Shown: positions 12,734-22,243 of the stretch, piece after piece
How positions within the stretch are numbered: the stretch's first letter is position 1
Layout of the letters: every line of letters begins with the position of its first letter
The notes under the pieces: generated by a model
The model's database searches: none
What the model was told of the DNA's origin: nothing
What the model saw: only the letters and a program-made list of their open reading frames with translations
From: Thermodesulfobacteriota bacterium
GTDB taxonomy: Bacteria; Desulfobacterota; Binatia; Bin18
Direction: 5' to 3'
NCBI GenBank assembly: GCA_964291405.2
Contig: OZ219926.1
Location: 640,001 to 704,000, forward strand
DNA length: 64,000 nucleotides
Translations under genes and position numbers: made by a program

Positions 12734-13267
12734 TCAGTTGGCGTCTTCTTTTTCTTCTTTCCTTTGGGGTGGCAGAGTGGGCGTCTCCGGGGGGGTGGCT
12801 GAAACGCTCCTGAGTAAAATATACGGATCGCCACCAATACCCATTCCCCGCGTAATACCCATCGTCCCGTACTGATAGCCGATCAACGTCCCGGTAAACC
12901 AGTACGACTCGCCCTTGAGAGGGATATCTTTCACAAGAGCCCGGTCCGCATAAAACAGGAGTATCCGGTCCATGATACTCGCCTTCATGGAAACGACACC
13001 ATTACCGACAACCAAGGTCGGAAGCATCGTCATCCCATAGTATTCCACGTACTCAACCTCACCCGTCTGCCTATCTCGGATAAAATAGCGTCGTTTGTCT
13101 CGATCAGGGAAACGTCGGAAGCCACCTGTCACCGTGATCTCTTGCCCGACTTTTTGGTTTGCGAAAAAGCGTACAAATGCATCCGCCCACACCTCCGCAC
13201 TGGGGTAGAAGAACACCATTCCAAGGAAGAGAGGGAGCCAAAGCGTCGCCGTGCGACATCCCCTCAT
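12734..13267 (-). CDS. Hypothetical exported protein
   Basis: Start re-picked at MRGCRTATLWLPLFLG (signal peptide ending VWA-D; GGAG RBS); no family recognised. Confidence 0.65.
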   Translation of the reverse strand: MRGCRTATLWLPLFLGMVFFYPSAEVWADAFVRFFANQKVGQEITVTGGFRRFPDRDKRRYFIRDRQTGEVEYVEYYGMTMLPTLVVGNGVVSMKASIMDRILLFYADRALVKDIPLKGESYWFTGTLIGYQYGTMGITRGMGIGGDPYILLRSVSATPPETPTLPPQRKEEKEDAN

Positions 13268-13407
13268 CGTCTTCTCCTCTTGCCAGAAGCTTACCGCCCG
13301 CAGTCTATGTAATTTCCAGACAAAAGAAAAGGATTGCTGCCCTTGCCGCTCTCTTGCCGTCCCGCTCCTTTCAGGCCACAATAAGTGAGGATGTGCAGGA
13401 GGGTGTA

Positions 13408-14004
13408 ATGCGGCGAAACTGGCGTGCAAAACTGACTCCTTTTCAGCAGCGAATCTTTGATCGGAGCACTGCGGTCACAACGATTGAATTTGATCCGACC
13501 TCACAACTTCGAGCAGCGATCAAAGCCCTGCCCGCCGCGCTTGAGGCAGAAGAGCAAGCCCGTGTCGCAGCGCTCTCCCAAACCATTGTCAATCACATCT
13601 GCCGGCAGCTCAGGGTCCGCACGGTCCAGGTCCGCGTACACGGCACCCGTCCTTCAAACCAACAGGGGGAACTCCACGGGCTCTATACGCAATACAGCGG
13701 AGGCAGTAAAAATGATTCGATCCAAGTCTGGATGCGAACGGCAAAACGAAAACAAACCGTTGCGTTCCGAACCTTTCTTAGAACCCTGTTACATGAGGTC
13801 TGCCATCATTTAGACTATACCTACTTCCACTTCCGAGAATCCTATCATACTGAGGGGTTCTTTCAGCGCGAATCCAGCCTCTTTCACCGCTTAATGTCTC
13901 CAACGACACAACCGTCGCAGGCGGCTCAGAAGCCGTCCCAGTCCTTATCCTCTCTGGCACAGGAATTCCTCCCAAGTCAGAGGCAGACTCAGCCGGAACG
14001 CTAG
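13408..14004 (+). CDS. Putative SprT-like zinc metalloprotease-domain protein
   Basis: Start after a GGAGGG RBS; [20 protein letters not shown] (HExxH plus distal His). Confidence 0.6.
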
Positions 14005-14108
14005 CGACCACTAACCAGAACTCTTGGACATCCGACTCGGCCTCATGTCTTCCTCTTCCTTTGTGCTATAGTGCTCTTCTAAAAAACGTTCGGCAATCCA
14101 GGAAGGAA

Positions 14109-15410
14109 ATGCCTATGCCTGAGTGGGTTTATGTCAAGGATATTGCCCAATACGAAGGGCAAGAAGTCGAGCTCCGCGGCTGGTTGTACAACAAGCGCTC
14201 CAGCGGAAAGCTGCACTTTCTTCAAGTGCGCGACGGCACCGGCACGATCCAGTGTGTGGTATTCAAGGGTGACGTCTCAGCCGAGGCCTTTGCCTTAGGA
14301 CAGGATCTCACCCAGGAGTCGTCCGTTATTGTCCGGGGCACAGTCCGGGCTGATAGGCGCTCGTCGATTGGCTTCGAACTCGGCGTGAGCGGCGTACACC
14401 TCACCCAGCAGGCCCACGCCTACCCGATTACCCCCAAAGAGCATGGGGTTGCCTTTCTGCTCGACCACCGCCACCTGTGGCTTCGCTCCTCACGCCAGCA
14501 GGCGCTCTTGCGTATTCGCAGTGAAGTCATAAAAGCGTGTCGAGACTACTTCGATACGCATGGTTTTACCCTGCTCGATGCCCCGATCTTCACCCCGGCC
14601 GCCTGTGAAGGAACAACCACCCTTTTCCCGGTCGACTATTTCGATGACACCGTCTATCTCACCCAGAGCGGTCAGCTCTATATGGAAGCCGGCGCCATGG
14701 CGTTCGGCAAAGTCTACTGCTGCGGCCCGACCTTTCGTGCTGAGAAATCCAAAACGCGACGCCATCTGACTGAATTTTGGATGATTGAGCCCGAAGTGGC
14801 CTACTGCGACCTATATGGTGACATGGACTTGGCTGAAGATTTTCTGGAGGCTGTTGTCCAGCGCGTCCTGACCAACCGACAAGCGGAACTCCAGACGCTT
14901 GAGCGTGATATCGCAAAACTCACTCAGGTAAGAAAGCCGTTTCCGCGTATCAGCTACAGCGAGGCTATAGAACGCCTGCAAGCTAAGGGCGTTGATATTC
15001 AATGGGGAGACGACTTTGGCGGGGATGACGAAACCGTTTTATCCGAACAATTCGACCGTCCGGTTATCGTCCATCGCTATCCGATAAACAACAAAGCCTT
15101 CTATATGAAGACCGACCCGCAGGACGCCACCGTTGCCCTCTGCATGGACGTCTTAGCGCCAGAAGGCTATGGCGAGATCATCGGGGGCGGGCAGCGAGAA
15201 GACGACCTCGCCGTCTTACGAGGGAAGCTGGAGGCGCATGACCTGTCTGAAGAAGCCTTCTCTTGGTATCTTGACCTGAGACGCTACGGCTCCGTTCCCC
15301 ATGCAGGTTTTGGCATGGGCATTGAGCGCATGGTCACTTGGTTGTGCGGTCTGCACCACGTCCGAGAATCAATTCCATTTCCCAGAATGTTAGAACGGGT
15401 AACACCCTAA
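14109..15410 (+). CDS. asnS: Asparagine--tRNA ligase
   Basis: OB-fold [59 protein letters not shown]. Confidence 0.97.
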
Positions 15411-15414
15411 CAGA

Positions 15415-16725
15415 TCACTGGAGAGCAGAGGCGGTCTTTGGCGCGGTCTCCGGCACGCGCGGAGCTTGCTCTTCTCGGATTGCTCGCAGCAAGGCAACAT
15501 TGTCCCCATGTCCCGTCCGGTAGGCAGTCACTTTGCCGCGGATAGGTTGGCCTAAGAGGTAGAGGTCGCCAAGCAGGTCAAGAATCTTGTGGCGGACAAG
15601 TTCATCCTCAAAGCGGAGTGGCGGATTGATAATCCCTTGCTCGCCAATTACGAGGCAGTTATTCAGCCGGCCGCCATTGGCAAGACCCATCTCTTCAAGT
15701 GCTTCAATCTCCTTGAGAAAGCCGAAGGTCCGTGCCGGCGCGATCGTCCCACGATAGCTGTCCGCATCACGCTGGACGTAGTGAAACTCCTGTCTGCCAA
15801 CTGGCTCTGGATACTCTAGACAATAGTCGATCTCAAGCTGCTCCGAGGGCTCAATGCGGAGGAACTTACCCGCACTATGGTCACCGACCTGATAGGTCCG
15901 GTCTACGCTCAACGCCTCTATCTCTTCGTCTTGTTCAACGATTCCAGCACTGTCGAGCAACTGACAAAATTCCAGCGCCGATCCATCGAGAATAGGAACC
16001 TCCCCCTGCATTTTAATGAGCAGATTGGTGATGTTATAGCCGTGCAGCGCCGAGAGCAGATGTTCAACCGTTTTCACTCCCGTCCCCTCCCGATACAAGC
16101 TGGTTGCGTAGCCGGTCGATTGAACATACTCGACCGTAGCTGGAATCAGGACGTCTGAGGACAAGGGACCGAAAACAATGCCGCTGCCCGGCGGTAAAGG
16201 GTGTAAAATAATCCCCGTGCGCACCCCCGAGTGAAGCCCCCGACCATGCACGACCACACTCTGGCGAATGGTCCGGGCCGGGATTTTCTGCGTCATGTGT
16301 GCGGCGGGAAAGTCCGTATCAGCCGTAGCGGCGGCTATTTGGGCAGTGGTGGGGTGACTCGGCTCTGTTCCCAGGGCACGGTGGACCGAACGGAGTAAGG
16401 TATCCAGCGAGAAGGGCTTTTCAAGGAAATCGGCGGCTCCGAGTTTTGTGGCGCGGACGGCTGTTTCGATCGTTCCGTGACCGGAAATCACAATAATCGG
16501 CAGTTCAGGCTCCCGAGACTGGAGTTGTTCGAGCAGAGTGATCCCATCGACGTGCGGCATCCAGATGTCGAGGAGAACCAGACACGGTTGCCACGTAGCG
16601 ACCAAGTCAAGAACGTTTTCACCCGAGTCCGCCTCAAACGTACGGAACCCTTCATCTTGCAAAACGCCCCGTAACATCGTCCGGATTTTTTCTTCGTCAT
16701 CCACAATTAAGATCGGCGCTTCCAT
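15415..16725 (-). CDS. lpxC: Response-regulator receiver domain fused to UDP-3-O-acyl-GlcNAc deacetylase LpxC
   Basis: REC: LIVDDEE, LLDIWMP, ISGHG, FLEKPF. LpxC: GRGLHSG, TVEHLLSAL, EVPILDGSA, APARTFGF, HKILDLLGDL, TGH. Single ORF; alternative start at 16746. Confidence 0.95.
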   Translation of the reverse strand: MEAPILIVDDEEKIRTMLRGVLQDEGFRTFEADSGENVLDLVATWQPCLVLLDIWMPHVDGITLLEQLQSREPELPIIVISGHGTIETAVRATKLGAADFLEKPFSLDTLLRSVHRALGTEPSHPTTAQIAAATADTDFPAAHMTQKIPARTIRQSVVVHGRGLHSGVRTGIILHPLPPGSGIVFGPLSSDVLIPATVEYVQSTGYATSLYREGTGVKTVEHLLSALHGYNITNLLIKMQGEVPILDGSALEFCQLLDSAGIVEQDEEIEALSVDRTYQVGDHSAGKFLRIEPSEQLEIDYCLEYPEPVGRQEFHYVQRDADSYRGTIAPARTFGFLKEIEALEEMGLANGGRLNNCLVIGEQGIINPPLRFEDELVRHKILDLLGDLYLLGQPIRGKVTAYRTGHGDNVALLRAIREEQAPRVPETAPKTASALQ

Positions 16726-16742
16726 AGACGTCCCCCCCTGCC

Positions 16743-19022
16743 TCACGCTGCGTCTTCAATGGACGGCGACGAAGGCTTCTCACGCAGCATCTCTGTCTGA
16801 CGAGTACTGCTGCGCACAGGCATCTCAATAATGAACCGGCTGCCTCGTGGCGTATTGTCTCGTACACGGATAAAGGCCTGATGGTCCGCCACCACGGTGG
16901 CAACAATGGCCAGCCCGAGCCCGGTCCCGTCCTTTTTGGTTGAAAAATACGGCTCAAACAACCGCTCCTTTATGTCTGGCGGGATCCCACAGCCATTATC
17001 AGCGACTTCGATACGCGCAATGCCAAGCGAGCGCATATATCGAGTCGTGACTTCGATACGGCCCGGAGGTTCCTCCGGCCCTTCTCGGCAGGCGACAACA
17101 GCATTGTCTAGCAGATTACGCAGGACGCGGCGCATCCCCTCGCGGTCAAGCTCGAACAACGGTAGGGAGTGGTCCGGCATAAAGACAATGTCCAGGTCGC
17201 GGTAGGCTTCGGCGATCAGAACAATTGTCTCCTGCGCCAACGCGTTCAGGTCATGTAGACTATGCTTTCCAGCCGACAGACGGGCAAACGTGGAGAATTC
17301 GTTGACAAGTTTTTTAATCGCGTCGACTTCATGCGCAATGCTCTGCACACACTCGTCAAACACTTCGTTCCCGTCCGTAATCTGGGGACCAAACCGGCGC
17401 TGGAGGCGCTGCGCCGCAAGCTGAATCGGGGTCAGCGGATTTTTTATTTCATGCGCAATCCGACGGGCAACCTCGCGCCAGGCTTCCATACGTTCGACCT
17501 GGACGATCTGCGTTACATCCTCAAAAAAGCATAACACCCCGAGCGCATGACCACGGTCGTCAGGCAGAGAGGTGCCCGTTATTAAGAGGGAGTGGATGTG
17601 TCCATCGCGATCCAGACGGAGCTGTCCTTTCTGTTCTTGACCGGCATCGTTCCCGTTGCCGTTTTGCCCAAGAAGGAGTTCCTGAACGATGCGCTGCACT
17701 TCCTGGAACTCATTTGCGGAGAATATATCCCGATAGTCCTGTCCAATAACGCTATCGGCGTGTAAATCCAGCAATTGCTCCACCGCCCGGTTCAGGGTGG
17801 AGAGCCGGCCATCCCGATCAAACGAGACGACGCCAGCATTGATATTCCCGAGTAAGATCTCCATATAGCGACGCCGGGCCTCCAGTTCCTGGTGACTCTG
17901 CTGGAGGTCGACGGTCATCCGATTGAAGGCGGAAACGAGCGTTCCGATCTCATCCTCACCCTCTCCCTCAATCCGGTGCGCCCAGTGACCCTGAGCGACC
18001 TCCCGGGTGGCGGCCGATAATTGTTGGAGGGGAACGGTAATTTTTTTCGCCAGATAGACACCCACCCAGATCGCCGAGAAGATGACGACCAGGGTGACCA
18101 GGACCATCGTAATCACATAATTGTTTTTGATTGGCTGCTTCAATATCCTGAGCTGGCGATACTCACCCAACGCCTCAACCACCTGCAACCCTTGTCTGAC
18201 GACGTTCACGGGAACCTGGGTGCCGGCTACAACAACACCGGTCAGGTGTTCTCCAACGATGACGGGAACACCTCCGTACACCAACTCGACCTGCTCCAGC
18301 GTCACGATTTGCTGGACCTCTTCGGTTGCAGACCGGACTCGTTCCAAGAGAGTCTCGCTGAGTTGGGGAGCCGCCAGCGCTCCGCTCGTCTCCGGCGCAT
18401 TGGCCACAAGGGTGAGCGCCGCGGAGTACACGACGAGTTGGGTCAGGCCACGTTCGTGCTGCTCGCTGTTCATGCGGGATTGCAACCGCTCGTAGTGCGT
18501 CGGCTCAAGGAGTTCTTGGGCGATAATCGTCTGAGCGATTGCCCGCGCGTGCGCCAGAGTCTCATCAGCAAGACGGGCATAGACACCGTCAACGACCTCA
18601 AGCGAGCTGCTTAACGAGCGCTCAACACGCAGGGCAAACCAATTCTCGATCGATTTCGTCAGAAAACCGACCCCGATAAAGAACAAGAGTACTGCCGGGA
18701 AAAGAGAAATACCTAAAAAAGCGAGGACGAGTCGAGAGCGGAGGTGTGCACCGGGCAGCTTCCGACGGCGCTCGTAAAACAGCTTCAGCAGGTTCCGACC
18801 AACCAGGAAGACCAGCAAAACAAGCAGGATGATATTGAGATTGATCAACAGAATGAAGATAATGTTGCTGATCAGACTTTCGCCGTCGCTGAGTTGTGGC
18901 GAGCGGCTCTGAAGAAAGGCAAACAAAAAGACGCCCAGCGCTGCCGCGATGATGACAACGATCTCCCAGAACTGGCGACGTTTGTGCTCCTCCAAGCGAT
19001 TTTCGTGGACTGGGGCTTCCAT
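16743..19022 (-). CDS. ntrY: NtrY-like membrane sensor histidine kinase (HAMP-PAS-HisKA-HATPase)
   Basis: N-terminal TMs, DEIGTLVSAFNRM HAMP, PAS, AWREVARRIAHEIKNPLTPIQL H-box, NLLDNA, DNGCGI, FEPYFSTK, GTGLGL. Confidence 0.92.
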   Translation of the reverse strand: MEAPVHENRLEEHKRRQFWEIVVIIAAALGVFLFAFLQSRSPQLSDGESLISNIIFILLINLNIILLVLLVFLVGRNLLKLFYERRRKLPGAHLRSRLVLAFLGISLFPAVLLFFIGVGFLTKSIENWFALRVERSLSSSLEVVDGVYARLADETLAHARAIAQTIIAQELLEPTHYERLQSRMNSEQHERGLTQLVVYSAALTLVANAPETSGALAAPQLSETLLERVRSATEEVQQIVTLEQVELVYGGVPVIVGEHLTGVVVAGTQVPVNVVRQGLQVVEALGEYRQLRILKQPIKNNYVITMVLVTLVVIFSAIWVGVYLAKKITVPLQQLSAATREVAQGHWAHRIEGEGEDEIGTLVSAFNRMTVDLQQSHQELEARRRYMEILLGNINAGVVSFDRDGRLSTLNRAVEQLLDLHADSVIGQDYRDIFSANEFQEVQRIVQELLLGQNGNGNDAGQEQKGQLRLDRDGHIHSLLITGTSLPDDRGHALGVLCFFEDVTQIVQVERMEAWREVARRIAHEIKNPLTPIQLAAQRLQRRFGPQITDGNEVFDECVQSIAHEVDAIKKLVNEFSTFARLSAGKHSLHDLNALAQETIVLIAEAYRDLDIVFMPDHSLPLFELDREGMRRVLRNLLDNAVVACREGPEEPPGRIEVTTRYMRSLGIARIEVADNGCGIPPDIKERLFEPYFSTKKDGTGLGLAIVATVVADHQAFIRVRDNTPRGSRFIIEMPVRSSTRQTEMLREKPSSPSIEDAA

Positions 19023-19113
19023 ACTCCCTCGCCCTGCTCATATCAGCAGCAAAGACAGTGAAGATATACCATCATAATCAGAGTTCCACCATTATCCATT
19101 TGGATCGCTTTCG

Positions 19114-20241
19114 CTAGAACAAATCGCCCTGCTCTTTTTTACCAGGGTGGTCGATATGCAAATGCTGGTAGGCCTTGAGGGTGGCCAACCGCCCCCGTGG
19201 TGTGCGCTGCAAAAACCCCTCCTGCAAGAGATAGGGCTCGTATACGTCTTCGATGGTGCTCTTCTCTTCGCCAATGGCCGCGGCTATGGTCTCGACACCG
19301 ACTGGTCCACCGTTAAACTTCTCGATAATCGTTCGCAGAATCGCCAGGTCCATTTTGTCGAATCCGGCCTCATCTACTTCAACCAGCGTTAGGGCGGCAT
19401 GGGCCACTGCTTGCGTCACAACCGGCTCTTTCTTCACTTGGACATAGTCGCGTACCCGTCGGAGTAAGCGATTGGCAATCCGAGGGGTTCCCCGTGAGCG
19501 ACGCGCGATTTCTGCGGTTCCGCCCGTATCAGTCTCAATCTCAAGAATTGAAGCCGACCGACGAATGATCTGTTCCAACTCGGACACCTGGTAAAAATCC
19601 AGGCGAAAGGTTGACCCAAAACGGTCTCGGAGCGGTGAGGTCAACAGTCCAGCACGGGTGGTGGCACCAACTAGGGTGAAGTGCTTCAGGGGCAGCTTGA
19701 CCGTTCGTGCCGACGGTCCTTGGCCGACAACGAGGTCCAGTTCAAAGTCCTCCATTGCCGGATACAAAAACTCCTCAACCACGTGATTGAGTCGATGGAT
19801 CTCGTCAATGAAGAGCACGTCGCCTTCTTCCAGGTTGGTCAGAATAGCGGCCAAGTCGCCGGGCCGCTCAATTACCGGGCCGGTAGTGGCCCGAATCGTG
19901 ACATCCATTTCACGTGCGATAATATGCGCCAGGGACGTTTTTCCTAATCCGGGTGGACCACAGAAGAGCAGGTGGTCAAGAACGTCAGCCCGTTGCTTGG
20001 CCGCCTCAATGGCGATCGCAAGATTCTGCTTCGTGCCTTCCTGTCCGATATACTCTTCAAGACTGCGCGGGCGGAGCGACCCCCCGAAACGTGGCTCGTC
20101 AGGCCAGTCAGCCCCACCGTCCGACGGAGCGTCCAGCGTCGACAGATGGGGATTCAGCACGTCGCGCCCTAGACTATCCGAATTTTCGTATATTTCTTTT
20201 GGCATGTCTTTCGCGGCACGGCTCATGTACTGAGCCTCCAT
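19114..20241 (-). CDS. ruvB: Holliday junction branch migration helicase RuvB
   Basis: [46 protein letters not shown]; exact start uncertain. Confidence 0.98.
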
Positions 20242-20810
20242 AACGATTCTCGGATCACATCGGCAATAGTCGTGTGTCCATCCCGAACAACCGCGCGCAC
20301 CATCTTCTCGGCTTGCGCCTGTCGATAGCCCAGATTCACCAGAGCAGAGGTCGCTTCGGTCGAGAGTGGACTGGGCGTTGCCGTCGGAGTTCCATTCTGT
20401 ACTTCACTTGCGCCAACTTTCTCCTGGAGTTCGACAACCAAACGTTCCGCCGTCTTTTTTCCAACGCCTGGAGTCGCAACCAAGCGTGTTACATCACGCG
20501 TATGCAGCGCATTCTCCAGCTCATCAACCGGAATACCCGACAGAATATTTAAGGCCAGGCGCGGGCCGATGCCGCTCACGCCGCGAAGCAGCAGAAAATA
20601 CGACTTCTCCTTTTCTTCCAGAAAGCCGAATAGCTGGAGGGCATCTTCTCGTGCATGGGTATGGATGAGCAAGCTGACCGGCTCCCCGACTCCCGGCAGA
20701 TGATAGAAGGTTTGCAACGACACCAATACCTGATAGCCGACTCCACCAACGTCGACAATGAGCTGCTCAGGGGTCTTTTCGTGAAGCACTCCGTGGAGGC
20801 GCGCAATCAT
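20223..20810 (-). CDS. ruvA: Holliday junction branch migration protein RuvA
   Basis: [43 protein letters not shown]. Confidence 0.98.
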
Positions 20811-20831
20811 AGAAGTTGCCGTGCGAGCGTG

Positions 20832-21443
20832 TTAATCGTGCTTTTTCTGGTCTGCGGCGAGCATCTGGGCTACCGTCTGTTCCGTAAAGACATCGCGTAG
20901 AGAGCGGGCCTTCCTGCCCCCAGCACGCCGCGGCTGAGCGCCAACTTGGTGGAGCAGATCGGGCAGGCGGGCAGCGCTACAGTGACAAATGGCTGCCGCC
21001 AGCGCATCCGTCGCATCCTGGCTTGACGGAAAGACCCCCGCCTTTCCGTCTGGATGGTGCAGTTGGGAAAAGACCGCTTTTTGGACCTGCATTTTCCCTG
21101 CCCGGCCATATCCGGTCACCGCCGTCTTAATTTCCGTTGGATTATACTCGGCAATCCGTAGACCGGCTTGGGCCGCGGCTAGGAGCACGACGCCCCGCGC
21201 CTCGCCGAGGCGTAGAGCGCTCTGGACGTTATGTGCCACAAAGGCTTTTTCAAGACTCAAGGCATGAGGAGCCCAGCGGTCAATCACCGTCACAAGCTCT
21301 TCGTAGATGAGACGCAGGCGTTCAGGCAGGGAGCGGAAGCCTTTGACAGAGACGACATCTCCGGCACAAAAGGTCAACGTCCGGCGCGTCTTCTCAATGA
21401 CACCCCATCCGGTCCGTAGCGTGCCAGGGTCTATCCCCAACAC
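20832..21443 (-). CDS. ruvC: Crossover junction endodeoxyribonuclease RuvC
   Basis: LGIDPG, LEKAF, LGEARG, TGYGRAGKMQV, DATDALAAA; true start may be further upstream (see findings). Confidence 0.97.
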   Translation of the reverse strand: MLGIDPGTLRTGWGVIEKTRRTLTFCAGDVVSVKGFRSLPERLRLIYEELVTVIDRWAPHALSLEKAFVAHNVQSALRLGEARGVVLLAAAQAGLRIAEYNPTEIKTAVTGYGRAGKMQVQKAVFSQLHHPDGKAGVFPSSQDATDALAAAICHCSAARLPDLLHQVGAQPRRAGGRKARSLRDVFTEQTVAQMLAADQKKHD

Positions 21444-21490
21444 GCGCAGTGGAGTCTGAGCGTTGCGAGCGTTGATGGTCTTTCCCTCCC

Positions 21491-22243
21491 TTAGGCCGCA
21501 CTGAGTCGTTCCATCTCCTCTTCAGCAATTTCTACATTCGCGGAAACGGTTTGGACATCGTCAAGCTCCTGGAGGGCATCGAGCAGACGTAGGGTTTGTT
21601 CGGCTTCCTTGCCGGAGAGGCTGACCGTGTTTTGGGGCACCATCGTCGCCTCAACGGACATCGTCCCAATATTGGCATTTTCGAGCGCCTGCCGCACGTC
21701 TTCGAGGGCATCGGGAGCTGTCACAATCTCAAACATATCATCGCCCGTTGTGACATCTTCCGCCCCGGCGTCAAGGGCAATCTCCATGAGTTGATCTTCC
21801 TCAGCCTGGTCTTTTTCTATGGTAATAATGCCCTTGTGGGTGAACATCCACGCAACGGAGTTAGGCTGGCCTAAGCTCCCACCACTTTTGGTGAACAGAT
21901 GACGCACTTCGGAAACTGTCCGATTTTTATTGTCCGTCAGCGTCTGCAGCATAATGGCCGCTCCGCCTGGCGCATGCCCCTCGTAGGTCACCTCTTCATA
22001 GCTGACGCCCTCAAGCTCTCCAGCGCCTTTTTTCACCGCCCGGTCTATAGTATCGCCTGGCATACTGGCCGCCTTTGCCGCGGCTATGGCCGTGCGTAGG
22101 CGTGGATTTGCGGACGGATCGCTCCCGCCCATCCGGGCCGCAATCGAGAGGTCTTTAATCAATTTTGTGAACATCTTGCCCCGACGGGCATCCTTGACTG
22201 CCTTCTTATGCTTAATGGTGCTCCATTTGGAATGGCCGGACAT
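21491..22243 (-). CDS. yebC: YebC/PmpR-family protein
   Basis: MSGHSKWSTIKHKK, NPRLR, YEG, TDNKNRT; canonical position before ruvC. Confidence 0.97.
   Translation of the reverse strand: MSGHSKWSTIKHKKAVKDARRGKMFTKLIKDLSIAARMGGSDPSANPRLRTAIAAAKAASMPGDTIDRAVKKGAGELEGVSYEEVTYEGHAPGGAAIMLQTLTDNKNRTVSEVRHLFTKSGGSLGQPNSVAWMFTHKGIITIEKDQAEEDQLMEIALDAGAEDVTTGDDMFEIVTAPDALEDVRQALENANIGTMSVEATMVPQNTVSLSGKEAEQTLRLLDALQELDDVQTVSANVEIAEEEMERLSAA

Follow-up and report, generated by a model that had tools for sequence, protein, structure and literature searches.

A receiver-LpxC fusion beside an NtrY-like kinase as a candidate case of two-component control acting on the committed enzyme of lipid A synthesis

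A 64,000 nucleotide (nt) stretch of DNA from a Thermodesulfobacteriota bacterium (GTDB lineage Bacteria; Desulfobacterota; Binatia; Bin18; GenBank assembly GCA_964291405.2, contig OZ219926.1, positions 640,001 to 704,000; hereafter the window) carries on its reverse strand a gene for an NtrY-like sensor histidine kinase followed by a gene that joins a response regulator receiver domain (REC) to LpxC. LpxC catalyses the committed step in making lipid A, is the control point of lipopolysaccharide (LPS) synthesis and is a long-standing antibiotic target. A first-pass annotation made from the letters of the window had proposed that the kinase directly tunes the activity, oligomerisation or stability of the fused enzyme. 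The coordinates it gave for the two genes matched the open reading frame (ORF) list exactly, and its description of the second gene as a single uninterrupted ORF with a receiver, a linker and a complete LpxC was borne out, with the linker at about 36 amino acids (aa) instead of about 30 (Table 1). The longest frame of the fusion gene, 15415..16746 (-), is uninterrupted and would encode 443 aa from a GTG at 16746 (ORF list), and on this frame Pfam placed Response_reg at residues 12-121 and LpxC at residues 158-423. The true start is likely the ATG at 16725, because a G-rich Shine-Dalgarno-like run lies 5 nt upstream of it and homologues are 433-436 aa long. By its layout the kinase/fusion boundary is an operon-type junction. 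The linker varies in both sequence and length across the family alignment, with 9-65 aa separating REC from LpxC in other short forms (REC-LpxC).

Table 1. Features of the kinase and receiver-LpxC locus, in window coordinates
Feature	Coordinates	Strand	Description and source
REC-LpxC fusion gene	15415..16725	-	436 aa from ATG at 16725; ORF list, Pfam, NCBIfam
LpxC deacetylase domain (predicted activity)	15478..16275	-	PF03331, 289 bits (cut-off 27, Pfam); equivalog TIGR00325, 266 bits (cut-off 187, NCBIfam)
Linker, ~36 aa, Ala/Pro/Thr-rich	16276..16383	-	holds a non-conserved internal Met
Receiver (REC) domain	16384..16713	-	Pfam PF00072, 108 bits (cut-off 30.2)
Kinase-fusion gap, 17 nt	16726..16742	-	G-rich ribosome-binding-like run; from kinase TGA to fusion ATG
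NtrY-like sensor histidine kinase, 759 aa	16743..19022	-	Pfam; H-box AHEIKNPL in HisKA
Sigma-70-like promoter match, ruvB-kinase gap	19071..19098	-	consensus scan, 9/12 positions, pattern match only

The LpxC part aligned over its full length with LpxC chains from the Aquifex, Pseudomonas and E. coli structures and carries the VEH, ARTF, RHKxxDxxGD and GH motifs. Numbered from the ATG, residues E221-H222, T333-F334, H379-K380-D383-D387 and H406 include what we take to be the zinc ligands and the catalytic Glu, His, Thr and Asp, going by work on the E. coli and Aquifex enzymes. In the receiver, D9/D10 presumably form the acidic pair, with D53 as the phospho-acceptor Asp, S81 as the Ser/Thr switch and K103 as the conserved Lys, and F100 and P104 are present as well. 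All of the motifs picked out in the first reading of the sequence (DD, LLDIWMP, the S/T switch, KPF, VEH, HKILD and GH) were found, those of the LpxC part aligned to Aquifex LpxC, and they are conserved in the family. The receiver was also correctly described as NtrX-like. Its best solved relatives were the receiver-containing entries 4d6x (2.4e-30) and 5m7n, and its best NCBIfam match was NtrX (NF051870, 131 bits, over the receiver part only). As the equivalog cut-off of that model is 600 bits, the window protein is not an NtrX, and unlike the REC-AAA+-helix-turn-helix (HTH) architecture of NtrX it has neither an AAA+ nor an HTH domain by Pfam. The source genome is 97.5% complete in 3 contigs, and a profile search found one LpxC-family match in all of it, the fusion gene, confirming this as its only lpxC; lpxB is encoded elsewhere in the genome. 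The fused gene was likewise the sole PF03331 match in 70/73 other fused genomes. Being the sole genomic copy, above the equivalog cut-off and sole in nearly all other fused genomes, the fused protein must be the working LpxC.

The fusion belongs to an old family. When 1.84 billion representative proteins were searched exhaustively, dozens of clusters formed at 50% identity turned out to be fusions. Binatia, Methylomirabilota, Nitrospinota and 'Deltaproteobacteria' metagenome-assembled genomes are among the source names of fusion proteins. Fused-type LpxC was found in 76/301 sampled genomes of the window's phylum, and the 73 phylum loci that were fetched comprised 49 REC-LpxC and 24 of a longer form described below. 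Full-length REC-LpxC was also found in 24/151 sampled Spirochaetota genomes. Exact-sequence look-up identified Brachyspira proteins annotated plainly as LpxC (429-435 aa) as REC-LpxC, with carriers in B. hyodysenteriae (including WA1), B. intermedia, B. hampsonii, B. aalborgi, B. murdochii, B. innocens, B. pulli and B. suanatina. Residue conservation was scored on 80 copies taken from genomes, of which 73 belong to the window's phylum and 7 to Spirochaetota. The receiver residues D9, D10, D53, S/T81 and K103 were kept in 80/80 fused genes, as were E221, H222, H379, K380, D383, D387 and H406 of the LpxC part. Pfam LpxC scores were bimodal across the phylum, with plain enzymes at ~1e-100 to 1e-112 and the fused clade at ~1e-75 to 1e-91, so that the fused clade stands measurably apart from the family profile with its catalytic residues kept. 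Around the Spirochaetota genes, the gene immediately downstream of REC-LpxC in two Brachyspira loci (L164, L165) encodes a sigma-70-family sigma factor of 287-292 aa and has the same orientation, and RecN is downstream in 4/7 loci (among L029, L166, L167, L168). One genome (G034) carries two LpxC genes, including a separate REC-LpxC (L087).

The first-pass annotation had named two ways in which the fusion could prove unreal, an assembly chimera and separate translation of LpxC. Both Pfam domains were present in 120/120 homologues among the matches listed. Of the contigs from public runs, a 10.5-kb one (run X3) spans 15200-19200 gap-free, and another (run X4, 16051-17448) crosses the receiver-LpxC junction. 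The two-domain homologues and these contigs rule out a chimera and place the fusion in relatives and in independent assemblies. Contigs from RNA libraries (X17, X18; one study) fell on the LpxC part and over the kinase/receiver boundary, with some parts of the operon uncovered, a lack of cover that carries no weight in either direction, and one of them (X17 record 3, 16714-16914) crosses the kinase-fusion junction, which is weak evidence of expression. Among public runs, 16 hold at least half of the words sampled from 15415-19022, 7/16 of these being labelled sponge metagenome, and 4 metatranscriptome runs contain small shares of these words. If LpxC were instead made separately from the internal Met (HMTQK), cells would contain free LpxC and the fusion would exist at the level of annotation only. 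The linker does contain an in-frame ATG. However, the HMTQK Met is not conserved even among 90%-identical relatives, no Shine-Dalgarno-like run was seen ahead of it, and the sole promoter-like match within the fusion gene is a 9/12 hit at 16037-16010, far downstream inside the LpxC part. The frame is moreover continuous in 80/80 genes, and the one locus with a frameshift (L139) belongs to a genome that is fragmented and 78% complete. Separate translation was rejected as unsupported on Met conservation and upstream sequence, and we consider it extremely improbable.

The kinase upstream has the Pfam order N-terminal membrane/NtrY_N region, HAMP, PAS, HisKA and HATPase_c. Its designation as NtrY-type holds for the domain architecture and less well for the family match itself, as NtrY_N scored a marginal 23.4 bits against a cut-off of 23.2; no NtrY model was among its best 25 NCBIfam matches. 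In all 26 Binatia-type loci where it occurs (L002-L028 and L032, minus L011 and L025, two loci that are cut yet in which the kinase is still visible), the kinase is found directly upstream of the fusion, and this holds even in ~50%-identity Binatia-type relatives where ruvB no longer adjoins. It is also directly upstream in 10/10 class-level genomes. Phylum-wide adjacency was counted only where 2300 nt or more of sequence lay upstream (61 of the 73 loci), and there the kinase adjoined 10/44 short-form and 8/17 long-form genes, all 10 class-level genomes included. The proposed conserved linkage was thus found at every Binatia locus with enough flank and failed to extend to most loci of the phylum. 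In 5 genomes with an unlinked fusion there was one full-length kinase match elsewhere, with no receiver gene beside it, which fits with an unlinked kinase and fusion still being a cognate pair. No NtrX-type regulator scored above the cut-off in the source genome (best 364 bits versus 600), leaving the fusion as the only evident partner of the kinase. Open frames of 1290-1423 aa in two genomes (G110, G143) had the appearance of kinase-REC-LpxC triple fusions; the kinase lies in another frame, and they were rejected as GC-rich open-frame artefacts.

The longer form of the fused protein consists of REC, an AAA+ domain of the sigma54-activator type with its lid, a Fis-type HTH (HTH_8) and then LpxC. 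The best NCBIfam match of the long forms was NtrX over the whole 452-position profile (296-344 bits, below the cut-off of 600), and these proteins are named NtrX at JGI and LpxC at NCBI. The sister proteins P0134 (735 aa) and P0132 (491 aa) have two parts in common at 73-78% identity, and P0132 lacks residues ~128-394 of P0134, the AAA+ module, with the HTH kept, giving REC-HTH-LpxC. The window protein had been seen at first as an NtrX-like beginning with LpxC in the place of the AAA+ and HTH domains. The REC-AAA+-HTH_8-LpxC and REC-HTH_8-LpxC relatives uphold this and indicate that LpxC was joined to an entire NtrX/NtrC-type regulator, the middle of which was lost after the fusion. A maximum-likelihood tree was built from 133 LpxC domains, with 34/167 rows left out for partial LpxC domains, and with N-terminally cut 'AAA-LpxC' fragments and one 681-aa long-middle protein scored as long forms. 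A single branch with SH-aLRT support of 100 separated all 60 fused sequences (35 REC-LpxC and 25 long), together with 5 'LpxC-only' rows (283-402 aa) that may be truncated, from 68 plain sequences. Within the fused side the short and long forms interchange at least 4-7 times.

The presumable starting point was seen in plain-LpxC genomes of this phylum, with the gene order (ruvB)-lpxC-DUF4390-kinase-REC-AAA+-HTH regulator. The kinase at these loci is the orthologue of the window kinase, with 37-42% identity over aligned residues ~76-738, and the regulator has a receiver 48-55% identical to that of the window. This regulator is a full-strength sigma54 activator (Sigma54_activat 239-253 bits, HTH_8 33 bits) whose best match is NtrX (507-520 bits, cut-off 600), so the kinase orthologue adjoins an NtrX-type regulator. 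By hand tally, 36/81 plain genomes of at least 18 families have lpxC on the strand of the kinase and at most 1.5 kb upstream of it, with genomes lacking a listed LpxC or kinase row omitted and pairs on different contigs taken as not adjacent. In three plain-LpxC loci (L178, L179, L182) ruvB is followed by lpxC-DUF4390-kinase-regulator, and the window looks like that locus minus lpxC and DUF4390 at their old place. A DUF4390 gene sits immediately upstream of the NtrY-like kinase in L095, L096, L097, L178, L179 and L184, and judged from its position DUF4390 is a conserved third component of the kinase/regulator system. A search of the source genome for DUF4390 gave no match, and the control of that search was silent too. 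One family has lpxC upstream of the kinase and, downstream of it, a waaA-type Kdo transferase (L177, G201) or lpxK (L186, G034); no regulator was seen beside the kinase in L177 and L186.

Walker A, Walker B, GAFTGA and ESELFG are the named motifs of sigma54-activator AAA+ domains, and GAFTGA is not known from NtrX. A regular expression scan found Walker A, G[AS]FTGA, ESELFG and Walker B in 10/10 unfused regulators. The fused long forms had Walker A in 18/19 and GAFTGA in 0/19, and Walker B reached at most 4/19 loose matches (LFLDDI, FVDDL and MMDEM twice) against 10/10 canonical ones in the unfused regulators. Together these data fit an order of events in which a kinase/sigma54 regulator pair beside lpxC was followed by fusion of the regulator to LpxC, by decay of the ATPase and of the sigma54 contact, and by repeated deletion of first the AAA+ domain and then the HTH. 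They also fit a receiver retained throughout, with the ruvB-kinase-REC-LpxC order of the window as the probable end state. Decay and deletion of the AAA+ domain with a receiver that is never lost is what would be expected if the receiver acts on LpxC directly. The intermediates form an unusually complete record of a sigma54 transcription factor turning into the regulatory domain of an enzyme.

The same record bears on the suggestion that the receiver is a leftover of the fusion, serving as a phosphate sink, a kinase docking site or a dimerisation handle on a constitutive LpxC. Parts of the fused protein can evidently become functionless, as the AAA+ and HTH domains decayed after the fusion, and the linkage to the kinase is gone in many fused genes (43/61 loci). 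However, a relic would not be expected to keep five phospho-acceptor positions in every one of the 80 genes, in two phyla, amid repeated deletion of the neighbouring domains, and no lineage of the fused clade with a clearly REC-less LpxC was seen, given that the 5 'LpxC-only' entries may be truncated. We regard a leftover receiver as very unlikely.

We think it probable, from domain content and gene order, that the fusion protein is a response regulator with LpxC as its output and that the adjacent kinase sets the state of Asp53 and hence LpxC activity and the flux into lipid A. The NtrY-like kinase would sense a signal, probably envelope or redox related, and would phosphorylate or dephosphorylate Asp53 of the receiver; the state of the receiver would then set the activity level of LpxC and with it the flux into lipid A. 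Response regulators with an enzymatic output are well known from CheB, PleD/WspR and RpfG, and in CheB phosphorylation relieves occlusion of the active site. The window protein resembles CheB-type regulators in having a receiver, a flexible linker and a catalytic domain, and differs from them in the enzyme and the pathway. The detail we favour is CheB-like, in which the unphosphorylated receiver would restrain the tethered LpxC and phosphorylation would relieve the restraint. Phosphorylation would then mean more lipid A, since the ancestor was a sigma54 regulator and an obligate activator of transcription, whose phosphorylation once meant more lpxC expression. We read the locus as that of a two-component system that once controlled lpxC transcription and may now act on the enzyme itself. 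In its broadest form, this would make the widespread NtrY/NtrX-type system, with DUF4390, at root a sensor of lipid A homeostasis that in several phyla, including in Brachyspira, was short-circuited to covalent allosteric control of LpxC, with the REC-AAA+-HTH-LpxC and REC-HTH-LpxC intermediates documenting every step. We judge this wider proposal to be evenly balanced between right and wrong.

Several observations weigh against control of LpxC by the adjacent kinase. Across the phylum the kinase adjoins the fusion in only 18/61 loci. Its orthologue gave one match in 272/301 phylum genomes, so that having the kinase does not distinguish fused genomes from others, and phyletic co-occurrence of kinase and fusion was set aside as uninformative because the kinase is there whatever the form of LpxC. 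The Spirochaetota genomes searched, including Brachyspira (5/5), gave generic kinase-core matches only and no NtrY-type kinase, and in these the role would have to fall to another kinase or to acetyl phosphate. Evidence from RNA is thin, with contigs from two runs of one study and libraries that may contain DNA. The polarity of the switch is inferred by analogy with the ancestral activator. To our knowledge the solved LpxC enzymes are monomers, and we know of no allosteric site in them.

The main rival explanation is that the receiver gates the stability of LpxC, with phosphorylation exposing the protein to FtsH, Lon or Clp or hiding it from them, which would amount to a phospho-gated form of the E. 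coli type of proteolytic control. According to PMC12444477, proteolysis determines how much LpxC is present in E. coli, and Lon perhaps does so in some Alphaproteobacteria. The source genome gave no match to the LapB zinc ribbon, in which case a different gate would be needed, but that model is unspecific, as in a control it matched unrelated genomes. A gene with a Lon substrate-binding domain lies just upstream of the fusion in 2/7 Spirochaetota loci (L029, L168) but neither the window nor the remaining 5/7 loci have it. RssB-type adaptor models of NCBIfam matched the receiver at 71-96 bits, far under their cut-offs, and these matches amount to generic receiver similarity. In addition, the tail C-terminal to LpxC showed no conservation in the family alignment. 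Gated stability therefore appears unlikely to us, and control of LpxC activity by the receiver is the reading we prefer.

This control of LpxC activity would differ from the known ways of regulating the enzyme. Control by FtsH/LapB/YejM in E. coli is regulated degradation through separate proteins, unlike the fusion in the window. At the level of the transcript, two-component control of lpxC has precedents with the same logic. In the matched passages of PMC7240162 and PMC12444477, loss of NtrYX in R. sphaeroides raises lpxC mRNA 8.8-fold and raises LPS, and NtrYX lowers lpxC mRNA in both R. sphaeroides and Caulobacter, an effect described there as indirect and pleiotropic. The Alphaproteobacterial NtrY/NtrX system shares with the window a kinase with a membrane N-terminal region, HAMP, PAS, HisKA and HATPase, a similar receiver and a link to lpxC. 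It acts, however, at the transcript level and indirectly, on a regulon of dozens of genes, whereas in the window the receiver is covalently joined to LpxC without a DNA-binding or AAA+ part. The passages matched in PMC3333781 give lpxC as the single mapped target of the D. vulgaris sigma54 regulator DVU2934 and place lpxC directly upstream of the orthologous DVU2931/DVU2934-type operon in Syntrophobacter. As described in those passages, this is likewise a kinase with a REC-AAA+-HTH sigma54 regulator for lpxC, and the Syntrophobacter order matches lpxC-DUF4390-kinase-regulator in the plain-LpxC relatives; unlike in the window, regulator and enzyme are separate proteins and control is transcriptional. 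A different LpxC fusion, LpxC/FabZ, is known in Bacteroidota, Chlorobiota and Verrucomicrobiota from the part of PMC3087551 that was matched, and its NCBIfam model NF009667 was listed among the matches of the window protein. In LpxC/FabZ a metabolic enzyme is attached to the C-terminus of LpxC, whereas in the window a signalling domain is attached to its N-terminus.

No description of a receiver-LpxC fusion was found in the matching passages of the literature searched. The matched passages of the Brachyspira genome paper and of a lipid A evolution paper are silent on it, and in PMC12444477, a review from 2025 on how lipid A is regulated that names proteolysis, protein partners and transcription, the words 'fusion', 'fused' and 'receiver' have 0 occurrences each. 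The REC-LpxC combination is visible in precomputed Pfam tables and is apparently known to databases without having been described or studied. If the proposed control of LpxC activity is true, it would be the first direct two-component control of the committed lipid A step and a new mode of LpxC control. The fusion would also serve as a 'Rosetta stone' that independently ties NtrY/NtrX-type systems to lipid A control, and this tie would explain the lpxC phenotypes of Alphaproteobacterial ntrYX mutants. It would offer a clean testable system of one protein, one Asp and one assay, and its presence in cultured Brachyspira makes both genetics and biochemistry feasible.

Directly upstream of the kinase lies ruvB (Pfam), preceded by ORFs reading like ruvA, ruvC and a YebC-family gene (19114-22243, -). 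Convergent with the fusion gene, 14061-15410 (+) encodes a class II aminoacyl-tRNA synthetase (Pfam tRNA-synt_2 and anticodon OB fold), with only 4 nt between the stop codons of the two genes. The 3' end of the fusion ORF contains a terminator-like + strand hairpin (15448-15464). Beyond the synthetase gene, a 281-aa ORF at 13159-14004 (+) contains the string HEVCHH, which resembles a zinc-peptidase motif.

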